This document shows, one piece after another, positions 36,672-45,973 of a DNA stretch of 64,000 nt; within the stretch, counting starts at the first letter, position 1, and every line of letters starts with the position of its first letter. Position numbers and translations under genes: made by a program. Origin of the DNA: Escherichia phage ESCO5; the sequence record NC_047776.2, one strand, 5' to 3'. The notes below the pieces were generated by a model, which searched no databases, was not told the DNA's origin, and was given only the letters and a program-made list of their open reading frames with translations.

Positions 36672-39600
36672 TCAATGACAGGATGCCCAGGAATTACCCA
36701 CGTCATATCCGGCAGTAAGCTGAACGTTAAGATTGTAAAATTCTCCAGCCTTAGTAACAGCTAAAGCAGCAAGTTCACCTGCCCGACTATAAGCTGTAAA
36801 CCATCCACCTTTGGGAGATTCATGAATGTTAGCCCAAATTTGCCCTGTCTCTTTTTCCTTATTATGCTTCCATTCTTCAACTTTAGCAAGGCATTCTTTA
36901 TCAATTTTCTTTTGTTCTTCAGGATCGTCTACTTTCTTCCAACCTAATGATTCAGGTGAAAACCATTTGAATTCTACAAGGTTACGAGAAACTTCAAGCT
37001 GGGCTTCATCGTGGTATGCAATCATTTGTTGCACGAAGTCTTTATTCTTCCAGTCATCTTTAAAGAAGTCAACACTTAGTCCTTCTTCTTCGATCATATC
37101 GTCATAAATAACCATTGCACGTTTAGCACAGATAACCCCACCACTTTGGAACAGAGAGTTAAGAATCGCGTGAGCAGAACGAGTAGGAACCTTACGACCG
37201 TCAATACCCAAAACATACTGTTTACCAGTCTTAACCCAGAAATCGTTTAAACGTTCTTTAAGACGCGCCAGTGGGAATGCAGCTTCCCAGAAAGCATCGA
37301 ACACCAGTTGCCCTGTAAACTTATCGCTACCAATTGTTTTAGCAACCTTGTCGGCTTGTGCACCATAGGTAATACCATACTTAACAGATTTAGCAGGACT
37401 ACGTTCAAATTTACGTCCAATAGTTTCAGTGATACGTTTTGCCATCATGGTATGAACATCGTTAGGCTTCTCTAACAAGAGAGCGTTACAGTATTCATGA
37501 GGCTCCGGTTCGTAGCGCCAACAGTTTCCTGTGATGGTAATGCAGTCTTTCTGACGCATGACCCACGTACCAAGTTCTGTTTGTGGACACCAAACATCCT
37601 CTACACCCCACTCTTCAATAGTCAAACTTTGAACAGGAATGTGAGAGCGGTTAGCCAATGTTACCACTTTTACTTTCTGCTCTTTTGTATTGAAAGCTAC
37701 AGAGATATTGCCTCCATGCACCAGGTACGAGGCAGTTAAAGCTGCTTCAAAAAGTTCACCTGGGTTCTGCGCCCAACGCCAAACAGGTTTTTGTTTATGT
37801 TCATGCCAGTAACCATCTGCAATCAAGAAACCTTCCAAGAAAGCTACACGCTCGGCATGAGACATATTAACTACACGCTCTACCCACGGAACATCCCATT
37901 TACCTTGTTGAACAGAAGTTAAACTATTTACCTGATCTTGTTCCATGTTAAATGGAGCATTACAAATAATATTATCTCCTGTGCAAAGCTCGGCAGTTGT
38001 TCTGACTTTAGGCACATAAGTATTCCCTTTACTACGGGTATTAACATACCAACGGTGATCTGCTGTTGCACGGTAAGTGTGTGATTTCCCTTTAATCTCA
38101 AACGTCTTACTATTTTTATAGAAGACCTTACCTTTTACTTTAGTCCATTCTTTCAGACCTGTTTCAGCATTGTACCCTAAAATCTCATCCCCTTCCTTCA
38201 GGTCGTGATATCCTACCCAACCTTTACGAGTCAAAGCTTGAGCATCCATCGGCACACAGTAATGCGACTCAATCTTTGCTTCCAAAGAGTCGAAGTCATA
38301 ACCGATCTGGAAATATTTAGGAACTTCTACACCAAACAAGTTACGCATCTCCCATCCAAACAAAGATGTGACACGAGGGATATTGGCTACAGACCTATGC
38401 TTCATACGAGAGGTTGCAGCATCACATGTAGCGGCTGGGGTAGGAATACGCCCATCTGCCCTTACTGCGGCTAAGAAACCTTTATCGTATTCTTGATCTT
38501 CTTCATCTTCTTCCCAATCAGCACCGCCACCTAAAATAGAGTTCCTACGATGCTTATACGTTAAGTATTCTACAATCTGAGTAGCATAAGGAAATTTCTC
38601 ACCCAAAGCTTGCAGGTTAGGACAGATTTCTTTTTCCTGACCTTTGGTAAAACATGGGTTAGTCAATACTTTAAGACCGCGACCTTTACCTTTTGCTATA
38701 CGCTCTTGAATCTTCCTTTCCAAGGTTTCCGGTGCGCACTCCAGATGATCACAACGGTCCTGACAAAAATTAGAAGATAAAGTTTGCTCAACGTAAGCTC
38801 GAATACCTTTCTGAAGTTCTTCCTCACTCTTTTTAATCTTGGTGCCAGATTTAAGAGTCAAATCTTTATCTTTATATTCCGATGGTACCCAACCTAATCC
38901 TACAAGCCAGTTTTTAATATGGGTTGTATCGTTCAATGTCGCAGGGATGTTAGGATCACACAGAGGCTCATCTGCTGCAACTGGCAGTTTCCACTCTTTC
39001 CCCAACATAACTAACCACCAATCGCCATCCCTCTCTTCCAAATGACCATCATGTTTTTTAGCAAAATTGATCATATGGTTAGTTGGTTCGAGGTTCTTTT
39101 TAATTTGCAATTTAGGCGGAATAAAAGCTTTAAGATAACCTTTTGTTGCTGGTTTAGGTGGCAAAATAGGCTCAACGAGTAAACGAAGACGCTCCATTTC
39201 TGCATCCAAAAAAGCAAGGTTCTCTTCTGCTTGCTTCATATTAAAAGCAAACCCACGGTGTTCCTGGCGCGTGATAATGTCTGCTACACGTTGTTCAAGT
39301 TCAAATGGACCTTCCCATTTATCATAATCACCCCATTCTTCCATAAGGTAGTTATATACGCTCGTATTGGCTTTGTTGTCATAGATACAGTAATAAAGCA
39401 TATCCGCAGCAAAAGTCTTAAATCGATCTTCTTCTGGAATCTCTTTACGGAAATCTATTTTTACATCACCACCTGCTTTTCGAGAAAGTGCTGCCAAGCT
39501 ATGTCCTGATTTGCCCTCAATCTTTCGATCTGGGTTTAACACTTTACTCAAAATCAAGGAGTCAATAAGTTTTACCTTATTTTTGCCCCACGTATTATAT

Positions 39601-40004
39601 TTAACACTGTAATCTAATCCATAAAACAGTTTTGTAGCCAACCAGTCGTAGTTGATACCGTTGTGAGCCACAGCCATTTCAACCAGATATTCAGGCTTGT
39701 CTTTAAAATAACCTTCATGATTAATAAAGTCTGGGAAATCTTTTAGTTGAAAATGCGTGTAATCTTGCGCCACATACTCTTTAAGAACATATGTATATTT
39801 ACCATCTGACTCTTCATAAGGACGCCCATCAAAGATGTATTTAGGGCCATCGTGGAAAGCTACTATTTCTCCTGTTTCATGGTTCTCTAAGACAATACAG
39901 TGCATTTGAAATGTGTCTTTGAGACGATAAGGACTAGCTAAATAATCAATAGTGTCATTATTCAACAATCCGTTTGCTTCAATATCCCATGTAAACTTAC
40001 TCAC
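36672..40004 (-). CDS. DNA polymerase, family A (T7 gp5-like), intein-containing
   Basis: 1110 aa; N-terminal exo motif WDIEANGL; motif A YDFDSLEAKI; motif B SPAKSVKYGITYGAQ; C-terminus ends ...SWASCH (T7: ...NWAICH). Confidence 0.9.
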   Translation of the reverse strand: MSKFTWDIEANGLLNNDTIDYLASPYRLKDTFQMHCIVLENHETGEIVAFHDGPKYIFDGRPYEESDGKYTYVLKEYVAQDYTHFQLKDFPDFINHEGYFKDKPEYLVEMAVAHNGINYDWLATKLFYGLDYSVKYNTWGKNKVKLIDSLILSKVLNPDRKIEGKSGHSLAALSRKAGGDVKIDFRKEIPEEDRFKTFAADMLYYCIYDNKANTSVYNYLMEEWGDYDKWEGPFELEQRVADIITRQEHRGFAFNMKQAEENLAFLDAEMERLRLLVEPILPPKPATKGYLKAFIPPKLQIKKNLEPTNHMINFAKKHDGHLEERDGDWWLVMLGKEWKLPVAADEPLCDPNIPATLNDTTHIKNWLVGLGWVPSEYKDKDLTLKSGTKIKKSEEELQKGIRAYVEQTLSSNFCQDRCDHLECAPETLERKIQERIAKGKGRGLKVLTNPCFTKGQEKEICPNLQALGEKFPYATQIVEYLTYKHRRNSILGGGADWEEDEEDQEYDKGFLAAVRADGRIPTPAATCDAATSRMKHRSVANIPRVTSLFGWEMRNLFGVEVPKYFQIGYDFDSLEAKIESHYCVPMDAQALTRKGWVGYHDLKEGDEILGYNAETGLKEWTKVKGKVFYKNSKTFEIKGKSHTYRATADHRWYVNTRSKGNTYVPKVRTTAELCTGDNIICNAPFNMEQDQVNSLTSVQQGKWDVPWVERVVNMSHAERVAFLEGFLIADGYWHEHKQKPVWRWAQNPGELFEAALTASYLVHGGNISVAFNTKEQKVKVVTLANRSHIPVQSLTIEEWGVEDVWCPQTELGTWVMRQKDCITITGNCWRYEPEPHEYCNALLLEKPNDVHTMMAKRITETIGRKFERSPAKSVKYGITYGAQADKVAKTIGSDKFTGQLVFDAFWEAAFPLARLKERLNDFWVKTGKQYVLGIDGRKVPTRSAHAILNSLFQSGGVICAKRAMVIYDDMIEEEGLSVDFFKDDWKNKDFVQQMIAYHDEAQLEVSRNLVEFKWFSPESLGWKKVDDPEEQKKIDKECLAKVEEWKHNKEKETGQIWANIHESPKGGWFTAYSRAGELAALAVTKAGEFYNLNVQLTAGYDVGNSWASCH
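37524..38258 (-). mobile_element. candidate intein with LAGLIDADG-type motif inserted in polymerase motif A
   Basis: Residues 583-827: starts with Cys (CVPMDAQAL), block B-like ATADHRWYV, LAGLIDADG-like AFLEGFLIADGY, ends ...ITGN followed by Cys; flanking extein aligns to T7 DASGLELRCLAHF / RFDNGEYAHEIL. Confidence 0.55.
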
Positions 40005-40798
40005 TATTCCTCCTTTCTAATGTTCTCCAGAACCCACTGAAGTTCTTTTAAACTTAAACTTCTTACTCCCGCAGTTTTACTAGCTTCAGCTTTAAGTAAC
40101 GGGTAAGCCTCAATGATACGCGTTTTAAGATCAGAAGTCAAGGCTTTTAAAAAATAGGTAGATGCTTCAGATAAAGAATCTTCTTCTGATAACACTTTAC
40201 CTGCACTTGCTCCCGCTCTCCTAACGGCTATATCGTAGTCTTTACTGTTACCTAATACGAATAGTCGATTCTCTCCTAAAACAACGGGAGAACGCTTCTC
40301 GTTGCGTTTAATCCATATCTGGAATACACAAGGAACATCCCAAGGTTCTCCATGAAGAATAAAAGATCCTTTTGGACATTCTTCTTCGTAAAGAAGATGC
40401 ATGTGGGGATTTAGTTTGTGTGCAAAAAAGATTTTTTGAAATGTGCGAGGCAAGATAAAACAAATACCACCTTCGTTATCCAACATTTCAGCACAATGGT
40501 TAAAGAACTTAATGGCAAGACTAGCATTTTTTCCAAACGGAGGATTACCGACAAAAGCAGTTACACTACCAACAGACTCAACAGATTGAGCTAAAAAATC
40601 TGCCTCAATACAATCTTCAAACTTAGGGTCAATATCAAAAGAAGTTATGTTTTTAAAACAAGAAGAGAAAGCTCCTTCTCCCGCAGATGGTTCTACGTAG
40701 TTAGCTTCCTCTCCAAAAATTTCTTTGATCTTATCACATAAGAACCCCGCATAAGCGGGGTTAGTGTAATATTGATCAAGTGTGTTCAACTTGCTCAA
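40004..40798 (-). CDS. N6-adenine-type (amino) methyltransferase, probable DNA MTase
   Basis: 264 aa; SAM-binding motif I VEPSAGEGAF and catalytic motif IV VGNPPFG in gamma-class order; stop overlaps polymerase start. Confidence 0.6.
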   Translation of the reverse strand: MSKLNTLDQYYTNPAYAGFLCDKIKEIFGEEANYVEPSAGEGAFSSCFKNITSFDIDPKFEDCIEADFLAQSVESVGSVTAFVGNPPFGKNASLAIKFFNHCAEMLDNEGGICFILPRTFQKIFFAHKLNPHMHLLYEEECPKGSFILHGEPWDVPCVFQIWIKRNEKRSPVVLGENRLFVLGNSKDYDIAVRRAGASAGKVLSEEDSLSEASTYFLKALTSDLKTRIIEAYPLLKAEASKTAGVRSLSLKELQWVLENIRKEE

Positions 40799-40807
40799 TA
40801 GTCCTCC

Positions 40808-41239
40808 TTAGTTGTTAGCGAACTCAATAGTGAGGTCAACTTTACCATCGTCAGAAATAACCATGTTTTTGGTATTTTTAAAGATGATATCTACTTTACC
40901 TTCACTTACACGACAGAATGCAACACCATCTGCAACTTTATCGATATAATATTTGTAAGAAAGAATACCCACTTTACTACGACCAGCACCTTTTGTGAAA
41001 GAAGGGCTTACATCGAAACGGAAACCTTTAGAAGAAACAACACGGTAAGAACGTCCAGTTGGAAGATGTTCAATAACAGAGACATTGTTCTCAACAACTT
41101 TTACAGCAAACTCTTCAGGATGATCCTCAACAATCATATGTGGGATGGCAAATGCCAACGCTTGTTTGTGTTTAATAACACCAGCACCCAGAGCACCAGC
41201 AGCTTTAACTTTTGCATTCAGATCGATTGTCATACGCAT
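40808..41239 (-). CDS. hypothetical protein
   Basis: 143 aa ORF. Confidence 0.5.
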   Translation of the reverse strand: MRMTIDLNAKVKAAGALGAGVIKHKQALAFAIPHMIVEDHPEEFAVKVVENNVSVIEHLPTGRSYRVVSSKGFRFDVSPSFTKGAGRSKVGILSYKYYIDKVADGVAFCRVSEGKVDIIFKNTKNMVISDDGKVDLTIEFANN

Positions 41240-41304
41240 TTTTACTTCTCCTCTTGTTTGGTTGATGAGACAAGTATAAGTCCCTTCCGTAAAGTTGTCA
41301 ACAG

Positions 41305-43122: not shown

Positions 43123-43401
43123 TTAAAATGGTTCGTTAGTCTCCATCATATATTCTGCTTCTAGTTCTTCCATGTGCTTTCTAAATTGGAAAGCAATTTC
43201 TGCTACAGTTACATTTAAATCTTTTTCAAAAACTTCTGTAGATCCTTCATAAAAACGAATACCGTCAATTAAAAGCCCTCCGTGGTAATCCCAATCGCTT
43301 TCACGAGAAAGTGGATTAGGTTCTTCATAATAGTAATCCACCTCCACAACCAAGGCTTTCCCGTTACGAGTGGTGTATTCAAAATCAAAAGTGTTAATCA
43401 T
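43123..43401 (-). CDS. hypothetical protein
   Basis: 92 aa ORF. Confidence 0.5.
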   Translation of the reverse strand: MINTFDFEYTTRNGKALVVEVDYYYEEPNPLSRESDWDYHGGLLIDGIRFYEGSTEVFEKDLNVTVAEIAFQFRKHMEELEAEYMMETNEPF

Positions 43402-44345
43402 TATAGCTCCTCAAATAAAAGTCTACGACGCTCATTCAACACATCAATGTGATAATGAGTCCTGACATACTTAGCTAATGCTAATCCTTTCTCCATGCAA
43501 ACATCGGGAGCACTTAATAAGTATTCCGTAATATCTTTCCACTCGGAAGGTGTTTCAGCAAAGAATAACAAATCTTTAAACTCTTGTGTATGATAATTCT
43601 CACGAGGAGAGCAGATTAAAGGTAAACCCTTAGCACCTGCCTCAAGAATTTTAAGATTGCTTTTTGCATTATTAAACACGTTATCGATCAATGGTGCAAG
43701 ACTGATTTGATGACCATCGTAAGATTCCATGTAGTAGGCATATGGTCTTACACCTTCATAAACACAAGTTGGTGCTACATTTTCCCTGATTAAAGACCAT
43801 TCACGACTACTTAAAACTTCAGAATCCCTACGAAAACCACATATTGTAAGATCTTTACCAAAATCGGGCAAGATAGCCAAATCTTGTTTATGTGTTTCAC
43901 TTCCAGCCCAGACTAATGGAGTTTTGGAGTAGCGATCACGGGTCAACACAAATTGACCTTCATCGTAAGGAAGTCCATTAGGGATTATGTGCACATTATC
44001 ATTGTATTGTGAAAGTTCAACTTGCAAGGCAGGTGTCGTAGTTGTAACAAGATCACTGTGCTCTAAAAACCATTTTAAATGTTCACGAATACCTGATTCA
44101 AAAATACCTTCTAACATGTGTCCTTTTGGAATAACTAAAGAGTCATCCAAATCCATAACCATTTTAAAGCCCAGGTTTTTAAGGGCTAAAAAGCCCTCTT
44201 TACCTTTTGTTGGCACTCCGTTAAAAACGAAAACGTTGTGTTTAGGTTGTGAAGAGAACTGCCTTGAGTAAGGCAGCACTACCCTATGGAAATCGCAGAC
44301 ACTATAATTGATTCCGTTACGATTGTCAAGAATTATTTGTCCCAT
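43401..44345 (-). CDS. putative GT-B fold glycosyltransferase (paralog 1)
   Basis: 314 aa; C-terminal NAKSNLKILEAGAKGLPLICS resembles GT-B donor-binding motif; paralogous to adjacent gene. Confidence 0.5.
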   Translation of the reverse strand: MGQIILDNRNGINYSVCDFHRVVLPYSRQFSSQPKHNVFVFNGVPTKGKEGFLALKNLGFKMVMDLDDSLVIPKGHMLEGIFESGIREHLKWFLEHSDLVTTTTPALQVELSQYNDNVHIIPNGLPYDEGQFVLTRDRYSKTPLVWAGSETHKQDLAILPDFGKDLTICGFRRDSEVLSSREWSLIRENVAPTCVYEGVRPYAYYMESYDGHQISLAPLIDNVFNNAKSNLKILEAGAKGLPLICSPRENYHTQEFKDLLFFAETPSEWKDITEYLLSAPDVCMEKGLALAKYVRTHYHIDVLNERRRLLFEEL

Positions 44346-44352
44346 ACTTCAC

Positions 44353-45300
44353 CTACAAACTTTCAATAACCTGGCGTCGCAATTCGTTTGCATCTGCCAG
44401 ATTATAATGTGTTCGAACATGTTCCGCTAAGAACAAGCCGCGATCTTCCCGATAGTTCGGATTGCGAAGAAGCTTAACAATTTCGTAATGCCATTCAGCT
44501 TTATTCTCTGCGTAAGCAACAGCGCGAGCATCTACAGGGTTAAAATAAGGTAATACCTTAGAACAAACAATCGGAATACCTTTTGCCCCAGCTTCAAGGA
44601 TTTTGAGATTACTTTTACAATTATTAAAATCATTGTCTACCAAAGGAGCTATAGCAATAGCATGACTTTCGTAAACACTCATGTAATTATCTAAATCTTT
44701 TACAGCAGCTTTATATTTGGCGTTTGGTAAATTTCTACGGATCTTAATCCACTCTTGCCCTGTGATACTCTGCGATGCTTCATATCCTGCAATAGTAAGA
44801 AGTTCATCATCGAAAGTATTAGAGACTAGTCGTAAATCGGGTTCGTGACTAGCACCGCCAGCCCATACAACAGGGGTACCGGATGAACGATCATTTGACA
44901 AAGTGAATTGTCCGCTATCAAAAGGAAGTGCATTTCGGATCACAACAACATTCCTATTTAAGTGACGGATCTTATATGCCAAATATTCCGTAGTCACAAT
45001 GACCACATCGGCAAGCTTAACCATAGCTACAATAGCATGAGTGTTTGACTCATATAAACTTGCTAAATAATGTTCTGGATTAAGTTGGTAGAAATCATCT
45101 AAATCTACAACAATCTTAACACCTTGACGTTTCAGTGACAGAACATATTCTGCCCCTTTAGAATGAATACGGTTAAACACGACAACATCTTTCTTAGGCT
45201 GAAAATTATTGTTGTTAAATGGTATAACAATACGATGATAATCACAACCACTGTGAGGTTTTGCATCAATTTTCAGTTTAGTCCATTTTTTATTTGACAT
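44353..45300 (-). CDS. putative GT-B fold glycosyltransferase (paralog 2)
   Basis: Start moved to ATG with GAGGAGG RBS, giving 315 aa, matching paralog length; shares CDYHRIVIPF / CDFHRVVLPY and KSNLKILEAGAKGIPIVCS motifs. Confidence 0.5.
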   Translation of the reverse strand: MSNKKWTKLKIDAKPHSGCDYHRIVIPFNNNNFQPKKDVVVFNRIHSKGAEYVLSLKRQGVKIVVDLDDFYQLNPEHYLASLYESNTHAIVAMVKLADVVIVTTEYLAYKIRHLNRNVVVIRNALPFDSGQFTLSNDRSSGTPVVWAGGASHEPDLRLVSNTFDDELLTIAGYEASQSITGQEWIKIRRNLPNAKYKAAVKDLDNYMSVYESHAIAIAPLVDNDFNNCKSNLKILEAGAKGIPIVCSKVLPYFNPVDARAVAYAENKAEWHYEIVKLLRNPNYREDRGLFLAEHVRTHYNLADANELRRQVIESL

Positions 45301-45973
45301 GTGCCAGTGCCTCCTCATAAGAAATTCGGATTTTCCCATTTTTAATATCTTCTAAAGACGCTTTATATTCTTCCCAGTTAATGCCAATAGCAACTTCTTT
45401 CTCTTCTTTTGTCAGATTAGCAAAAGGCATAGGATTGTTTCCAAAAACATCGTCTGGGTGGATATAAGCCATGATACGAAGTGGACAAGGTATTGCCTGA
45501 ATGCCCTGATTCAAACCAGCAGCTTTCAAACGGTGTACCCATTCAGCATCTTCAAAACCATAGCCGTGAGTGTAAGGGCGGAAATAACCCATCTTCTCAA
45601 CAACGGCACGAGAATACATTGCAAATTGACACATTGCAAGTTCCCAGAGAATAACTTCTCCTTTACTCCCAACAACTTTATCTTTGAAATACTCCGGCAT
45701 ACCAAAGAAATCCCATCCTCCAGAGACAGCTTGATCTACAAAATATGTTTCCCATCCCTCCATGATTGGGTAGCAATCGTCGTCAAAAATAAACCAATAA
45801 TCATAACCTTCTTCATAAAACTGGTGCATAAGTTCATTCCTGGCGTAAGCTACACCTTTACGATCTGGATCGTTGAATACTCGAAAATCTGCATGTGGAT
45901 CTGTTACAAGGTAGTCTTTAAGTGGACGGACACCTACAGTGATAACACCCACTCCGATTTTAATATTTTCCAT
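45290..45973 (-). CDS. putative GT-A fold glycosyltransferase
   Basis: 227 aa; DxD-type motif in WFIFDDDCYP and GYGFEDAEWVHRL motif typical of family-2-like transferases. Confidence 0.5.
   Translation of the reverse strand: MENIKIGVGVITVGVRPLKDYLVTDPHADFRVFNDPDRKGVAYARNELMHQFYEEGYDYWFIFDDDCYPIMEGWETYFVDQAVSGGWDFFGMPEYFKDKVVGSKGEVILWELAMCQFAMYSRAVVEKMGYFRPYTHGYGFEDAEWVHRLKAAGLNQGIQAIPCPLRIMAYIHPDDVFGNNPMPFANLTKEEKEVAIGINWEEYKASLEDIKNGKIRISYEEALAHVK

Follow-up and report, generated by a model that had tools for sequence, protein, structure and literature searches.

The gene at positions 40004..40798 on the minus strand of the 64-kb stretch of phage DNA analysed here (the window) probably encodes an active, SAM-dependent and sequence-specific DNA N6-adenine methyltransferase of the gamma (M.TaqI-like) class, an orphan enzyme that would be co-expressed with replication genes and would methylate the phage's own DNA. 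We infer its catalytic activity, its DNA substrate in this phage, its sequence specificity and its anti-restriction role, along with the role of a neighbouring 143-aa ORF (orf143); the literature searched contained no experiments on this protein or on any other member of its family. The gene is an ordinary one: the label of DNA adenine methyltransferase is already present in public records, GenBank included, and the protein is an uncurated, uncharacterised family member of a known enzyme type. What is new here is the case for DNA, and not RNA, as the target, together with a candidate cognate nuclease family and a conserved partner in orf143.

The CDS, taken from the ORF list, has 264 codons (264 aa) from a TTG start to a TAG stop, and identical boundaries are given in GenBank PQ433349 (Escherichia phage vB_Ec-G1), where EcG1_123 is called 'DNA methyltransferase'. 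Together, the ORF list and that annotation bear out the ORF reported in the first-pass annotation and supply the point left unstated there, namely that it lies on the minus strand. On inspection of the sequence, the TTG start is preceded by a strong Shine-Dalgarno sequence, AGGAGG at 40808..40803 (minus strand), four bases 5' of the start; it overlaps the TAA stop (40810..40808) of orf143 upstream, the two together spanning 40803..40810. Judged from its sequence, this is not a chance ORF: the match to PHROG 5172, the numbers of homologs and the invariant residues described below are far beyond chance. Across its whole length, the segment 36000-44000 shares 97.3-98.8% identity with the listed genomes of Phapecoctavirus (Stephanstirmvirinae), and 63 records match it at 95-99%, which by sequence places the window in a phAPEC8-like coliphage of the genus Phapecoctavirus. 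The same CDS is annotated 'putative DNA N6-adenine methyltransferase' in published phages 98-99% identical to the window, REC, ZCKP1 and anhysbys among those so labelled, and 'hypothetical protein' in many more.

Two motifs define the enzyme type, each located by sequence and by conservation among homologs: the SAM-binding loop EPSAGEGAF (motif I, residues 36-44, 40667..40693, minus strand) and NPPF of the catalytic adenine-N6 pocket (motif IV, residues 85-88, 40535..40546, minus strand). The measured spacing of 41-49 residues agrees with the earlier estimate of about 45. In an alignment of 76 homologs, E36, P37, A39, G40, G42, D55, N85, P86 and P87 are invariant and F88 is conserved in at least 90%, and the window protein retains every catalytic and cofactor residue. 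Conservation spans the whole length of this alignment. Its blocks run, in order, from the motif-X-like DQYYT (8-12) through EPSAGxGxF (I), D55 (II), D67-F68 (III) and GNPPFG (IV) to FILPxTFxK and VPCVFQIW, and then to RRVGxxAGK and TAGVRSLS in a C-terminal module where R193, R194, G196, G200, G244 and S247 are highly conserved. This is the gamma-class order that had been proposed from motifs I and IV, here extended by an N-terminal motif X-like block and by motifs II and III; under the Malone-Blumenthal-Cheng classification, the linear motif order, the (D/N)PP(Y/F) tetrapeptide and the glycine-rich SAM loop are all those of the gamma class.

Profile searches place the protein in a large family that has remained outside the curated collections. 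It matches PHROG 5172 ('unknown function') over residues 1-263 with E 1.7e-110, and PHROG 799 'DNA methyltransferase' with E 1e-10. The NCBIfam search gave no match, and Pfam Eco57I (PF07669) reached 15.6 bits (E 0.017), below its gathering threshold of 25.3 bits. When the 76 homologs were scanned singly, no Pfam or NCBIfam family reached its threshold; they gave only weaker matches to Eco57I, RrnaAD, D12 and N6_Mtase, with 0.0031 as the best Eco57I E-value. A precomputed label on some homologs, PF26055.1, which may denote an EDM2-type methylase domain, was not reproduced, finds no mention in the literature searched and was given no weight. A database clustered at 90% contains 2,465 homologs, and at E<=1e-30 the family comprises 1,591 clusters of 50% identity. 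Phages, giant-virus MAGs, bacteria and archaea all have members, most of which stand alone and are 250-290 aa long.

An AlphaFold2 model built with the 76-sequence alignment (pLDDT 94.5, pTM 0.89) has a Rossmann-type core, which extends to about residue 165 and is followed by beta-hairpins at 180-219 and two helices at 224-263. The top Foldseek matches in the PDB are M.TaqI (E 7e-8, TMq 0.56), M.BseCI, CamA and a type I M subunit, so that the catalytic domain of the model resembles those of M.TaqI-type enzymes. The structural match values are 15.3 over 232 residues for M.BseCI, 14.6 over 248 for MmeI, 14.5 over 223 for M.TaqI and 13.9 over 235 for CamA. With gamma-class DNA adenine methyltransferases as its best full-length structural neighbours, in addition to its motifs, the protein can be kept as the adenine-type, SAM-dependent methyltransferase it was first taken for. 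It is also, as had been remarked, small for a DNA methyltransferase: its 264 aa are unusually compact, and the region that may serve target recognition in the model is a C-terminal module of ~100 aa, the beta-hairpins and two helices with conserved basic residues, rather than a domain of the size found in M.TaqI. M.TaqI itself, a gamma-class type II N6-adenine DNA methyltransferase of TCGA whose fold the phage model matches, has 421 aa with a separate C-terminal recognition domain of ~180 aa and a cognate restriction endonuclease (REase), whereas the phage protein has no REase; the sequence similarity between the two is not significant (E 0.4). M.BseCI, CamA (an orphan) and MmeI, also gamma-type DNA adenine methyltransferases, are at least twice the length of the phage protein, have large recognition domains and share 12-16% identity with it.

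The nature of the target is best indicated by the company that the family keeps in bacteria and viruses. When each prokaryotic species was represented by a single genome, homologs were found in 280 bacterial or archaeal genome stretches, with 33-43% full-length identity; the groups concerned include Sphingomonadales, Rhodobacterales, Dehalococcoidia, Burkholderia, Leclercia and Nitrosopumilus. ORFs were called in 78 of these 280 loci and all neighbours were clustered. The sole strongly recurrent neighbour is a protein of about 215 aa (~199-228 aa), which in 15 loci starts between -20 and +10 nt from the methylase stop; an HMM of this partner places it next to the methylase at 18 or more bacterial loci and at ~12 viral ones, the latter mostly giant-virus MAGs, either in tandem or convergent. 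The fold predicted for the partner matches those of type II restriction endonucleases of the PD-(D/E)xK group. The partner was recognised in a minority of the bacterial loci; others have different tightly linked downstream genes, or mobile-element genes of the serine-recombinase type. At a locus of Poseidonibacter ostreae, the methylase-partner pair adjoins type I M and S genes and lies between transposases. That one methylase family should recur beside one nuclease-fold family, in either of two orientations and in different domains of life, is the signature of type II restriction-modification, and therefore the family would be expected to methylate DNA at a defined site. The first-pass annotation had left a protein or an RNA target open; as regards RNA, that reservation can largely be set aside through these homolog cassettes with their PD-(D/E)xK-fold partner.

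No relative of the REase-like partner was found in the 64-kb window by tblastn or HMM, and the methyltransferase is flanked instead by orf143 and the DNA polymerase gene. Thus, an adjacent cognate REase, as expected of a type II restriction-modification system, is absent from the window and present at some homolog loci. As the partner stands beside homologs elsewhere and is missing here, the phage copy can be called an orphan, as had been supposed.

By tblastn, the methyltransferase occurs in 226 phage records, with identities of 97.7-99.6% in 63 Phapecoctavirus-type records, ~54% in rV5-like Vequintavirus, 58% in a Klebsiella phage and 42% in a Vibrio phage; Felix O1-like phages, Pseudomonas KIL-like phages and cyanomyoviruses give partial matches. 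Its neighbours differ among these phages. It is preceded by a polymerase/exonuclease ORF in rV5-like phages, by RNR alpha in KIL3 and by rIIB in Felix O1-like phages, and is followed by RNR in the Vibrio phage; thymidylate synthase is a neighbour in some. The setting common to them is a region of early/middle replication and nucleotide metabolism. Adjacency to the DNA polymerase, considered as a feature of the whole family, was rejected, being seen in Phapecoctavirus-type loci only.

In the window, the gene directly 3' of the methyltransferase is that of a family-A DNA polymerase (1110 aa, 36672..40004, minus strand; Pfam DNA_pol_A E 2.1e-11, 'DNA polymerase I' in GenBank). At the junction, AGGAGGAATAGTG (40002..40014, minus strand), base 40004 is both the last letter of the TAG stop (40006..40004) and the first of the GTG at which the polymerase starts (40004..40002), which makes the stop-start overlap described in the first-pass annotation one of 1 nt; the minus-strand letters of the junction read AAAGGAGGAATAGTGAGTAAG and AAAGGAGGAATAGTGAGT. 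Translational coupling of the two genes is plausible from this arrangement but would not be required, because the polymerase has a strong Shine-Dalgarno sequence of its own, AGGAGG at 40014..40009, within the last methyltransferase codons. orf143 is separated from the methyltransferase by 9 nt, and the methyltransferase from the polymerase by -1 nt; a search for terminator-like sites between these three genes found none, and a sigma-70-like match (TTGACA-17-TATACT, 11/12) lies at 41273..41301 on the minus strand, in a 92-nt gap upstream of orf143. On these grounds the three genes are likely to be co-transcribed. The sigma-70-like site is a consensus match only, in a region where promoter-like matches are no commoner than in shuffled sequence, and it is possible that it serves as the promoter of the unit.

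orf143 (40808..41239, minus strand), directly upstream of the methyltransferase, belongs to PHROG 9938 'function unknown' (E 9.8e-63) and gave no match in Pfam or the PDB. It is directly upstream of the methyltransferase in all 64 of the phage records that have it. Relatives lie upstream of the methylase in a Vibrio phage (L088), in L091, L093 and L101, and in Klebsiella phage 05F01, and downstream of it in rV5-like phages (L085 and L090); among the phage lineages examined, all those with an identity of ~39% or more have an orf143-like gene flanking the methyltransferase, in varying order. A relative also forms the N-terminal ~140 residues of a fusion, P0020, of 395 aa with 21 member sequences. 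Because adjacency is kept in either order and a fusion exists, a functional or physical partnership of orf143 and the methyltransferase is suggested by these sequence data. The partnership is a feature that the first-pass annotation did not contain. A motif, D-x-SPS(F/Y)TKGxGRxK, is conserved in orf143. The possibility that orf143 is a degenerate relative of the REase-like partner was considered and rejected (hhalign probability 0.5%). That it is a separately encoded recognition or targeting subunit that has replaced the REase of an ancestral cassette, serving for example in replisome tethering or sequence specificity, is a speculative and on the whole doubtful idea. If true, it would be an arrangement of orf143 and methylase not described for type II-like orphan methylases, and orf143 is the only element here that could be mechanistically new.

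Our preferred interpretation is that the methyltransferase is a compact, single-polypeptide relative of the modification halves of type II restriction-modification cassettes: the enzyme would have descended from restriction-modification methylases, with the phage retaining the methylase only. It would be expressed in the order orf143, methyltransferase, DNA polymerase, probably from one transcript, with back-to-back Shine-Dalgarno sites and the 1-nt stop/start overlap. SAM would be bound by motif I, D55 and D67-F68, and the target adenine would be flipped into the NPPF pocket. The basic, conserved C-terminal ~100 residues, with RRxGxxAGK and TAGVRSLS, may act as a minimal DNA-recognition module, so that newly replicated phage DNA would be methylated at a short motif. 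Such DNA could then resist restriction enzymes of matching specificity, for instance those of the REase-like family beside the bacterial homologs.

Protection of the phage DNA in this way is a role that we infer, and nothing direct on the methylomes of rV5, phAPEC8 or Vequintavirinae phages was present in the literature searched. The restriction systems used in the BASEL study reportedly include the m6A-sensitive enzymes EcoRI and EcoRV. Vequintavirinae and relatives, which carry the 54%-identical ortholog, are described in that study as 'exceptionally susceptible' to restriction systems, and two 2026 Druantia preprints group these phages with restriction-sensitive ones. Any protection must therefore be narrow, since phages that bear an ortholog are exceptionally restriction-sensitive; this fits one narrow specificity and argues against broad or non-specific adenine methylation. 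A report of ClaI resistance in Certrevirus CB7 was considered as evidence and rejected, as the methylase CB7_63 is unrelated, with no hhalign similarity.

Among other interpretations, that of an RNA N6-adenosine methyltransferase in the style of METTL5/Ta1320 (COG2263), acting on host rRNA or tRNA or on phage transcripts during infection, is raised by the PDB sequence-profile search, which favours the RNA-type enzymes Ta1320 (1.3e-4) and METTL5 (9e-4) over M.TaqI, with an alignment covering the N-terminal L(D/E)QY.T and NPPFG. Several homologs are named 'predicted RNA methylase' by JGI, and 13 of the 76 homologs have weak RrnaAD matches. However, every sequence match to an RNA family falls below curated thresholds, and at the level of structure the order is reversed: RNA enzymes such as METTL5 match the model over the ~150-residue (154) Rossmann core only, while gamma-class DNA enzymes cover 223-248 residues and stand at the top of the Foldseek ranking. 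METTL5, Ta1320 and PH1948, the RNA m6A enzymes of COG2263, are single-domain proteins of ~200 aa without a counterpart of the conserved C-terminal 100 residues, and full-length homology to them was not found. METTL5 also needs TRMT112. We know of no restriction-modification context for METTL5, Ta1320 or PH1948, and homologs of the phage protein are repeatedly found beside a restriction-endonuclease-fold protein. DNA is the likely target because of this last association, and we regard an RNA target as very unlikely.

If DNA is the substrate, two further interpretations differ from ours in specificity or purpose. The compactness of the protein, in whose model the catalytic domain is followed by no more than a small C-terminal module, would suit a non-specific or very low-specificity enzyme like M.EcoGII, by which most adenines of nascent DNA would be methylated. 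Global adenine methylation should prevent restriction by m6A-sensitive enzymes such as EcoRI and EcoRV, but ortholog-bearing Vequintavirus phages are strongly restricted by the systems used in the BASEL study; the type II REase-like protein with which homologs are paired points to a defined site, and the conservation of the C-terminal module is as expected for specific recognition, so that we give this interpretation hardly any credence. Less improbable, yet still unlikely, is a two-component module of DNA adenine methyltransferase and orf143 that marks replicating phage DNA for purposes other than anti-restriction. Control of replication or packaging, self/non-self discrimination for a phage nuclease, and the timing of gene expression are possible roles, and orf143 would supply the targeting to DNA or to the replisome. 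The constant association with orf143-like genes, extending to fusion in P0020, is consistent with such a module, as are the lack of a large target-recognition domain, the position of the gene inside the replication module, and the susceptibility of related phages, which by the BASEL study are not broadly shielded from restriction. Against it, orphan phage methyltransferases are classically anti-restriction; bacterial homologs occur in restriction-modification-like cassettes without orf143, so that the methyltransferase is probably self-sufficient; and the role of orf143 is pure conjecture, as neither a fold nor a family assignment is detectable for it.

The orphan, sequence-specific DNA methyltransferase that we favour has parallels in other viruses. 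T4/T2 Dam and P1 Dmt are phage methylases without a nuclease that methylate progeny DNA at GATC. The biology proposed for the phage protein is the same, but these enzymes are of the alpha class (D12/Dam), whereas weak MethyltransfD12 matches appear in only 4 of the 76 homologs of the phage family. Chlorella-virus-type restriction-modification of giant viruses offers a likeness by context only, in that giant-virus MAG contigs contain many of the homologs, often with the REase-like partner alongside.

The annotation of this gene is best read as that of a DNA, not an RNA, adenine methylase, despite the lack of a match above threshold in Pfam or NCBIfam. Some 1,600 protein clusters of phages, giant viruses and bacteria are now linked to an uncharacterised REase-like family, and the methylase and this family form a candidate type II restriction-modification pair with a specificity that could be determined. 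Phage therapy makes use of Phapecoctavirus and Vequintavirus, and knowing which restriction systems are defeated by the methylase would help in predicting their host range. One point of annotation in the latter phages can be corrected: nomine_183, which is labelled in rV5-like phages as a second 'putative DNA N6-adenine methyltransferase', shows no similarity to methylases and is a homolog of orf143.

Directly upstream of the methyltransferase gene lies orf143 (window 40808..41239, minus strand; 143 aa, PHROG 9938), for which searches of Pfam and the PDB returned no match. Its relatives in divergent phages keep adjoining genes of the methylase family, on either the upstream or the downstream side, and in one 395-aa homolog, P0020, an orf143-like part is fused to the N-terminus of the methylase. 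The orf143 protein carries the conserved motif D-x-SPS(F/Y)TKGxGRxK. Another homolog of orf143 (PHROG 9938), nomine_183 of Escherichia phage nomine (locus L085 5282-5740; 152 aa), is labelled in GenBank as a "putative DNA N6-adenine methyltransferase"; it was rejected as a methylase, having no methylase similarity, and the label appears to be wrong.

A different partner, of about 215 aa, adjoins methylase homologs in bacteria and in giant-virus MAGs, as at loci L029 (6782-7432), L043 (6791-7444), L008 (5690-6286) and L115 (3661-4326, minus strand), with about 25 further loci besides these. All 591 members of this family in the database are named "hypothetical". The predicted fold resembles that of PD-(D/E)xK type II restriction endonucleases, making these proteins a candidate new restriction endonuclease family.

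Giant-virus (Nucleocytoviricota) MAGs supply a large share of the methylase homologs found on viral contigs (L097-L169, IMGVR GVMAG contigs), and the methylase family thus spans phages and the viruses of eukaryotes known as giant viruses. The 18.6-kb contig JAEZZU010000159.1 (L006), from a bacterial MAG bin titled "MAG: Proteobacteria bacterium OH_PFB_59", is 99–100% identical to this phage across the methyltransferase, orf143, primase and glycosyltransferases; it is phage sequence that was wrongly binned with a bacterium. Five records titled "Campylobacter phage" with C. jejuni as host (MG065650, MG065652, MG065661, MG065635 and MG065647) contain genes for the methyltransferase or for orf143 that match their counterparts in E. 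coli Phapecoctavirus and rV5-like phages exactly or almost exactly; these records are likely mislabelled or derived from mixed lysates.

In the surrounding replication module, a near-consensus sigma-70 promoter match (TTGACA-17-TATACT; window 41273..41301, minus strand) sits within the 92 nt that separate orf143 from the primase/helicase gene. Immediately upstream of primase/helicase is a run of four glycosyltransferase genes (window 43401..45339, minus strand, and further upstream, locus L001 13401-16545); two of the four were checked, and both gave weak matches to Glyco_trans_1. The BASEL authors speculate that glycosyltransferases of related phi92-like phages modify DNA; the four enzymes here may likewise act on DNA, or on a surface glycan.

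The DNA polymerase carries a 245-aa insertion (residues 583-827; window 37524..38258, minus strand) whose first residue is Cys and whose last residues are TGN, with another Cys coming next. Weak Pfam matches, Intein_splicing at E 0.009 and LAGLIDADG_3 at E 0.13, make an intein probable. In some related phages, the same region holds an HNH-endonuclease insertion of about 570 bp instead.
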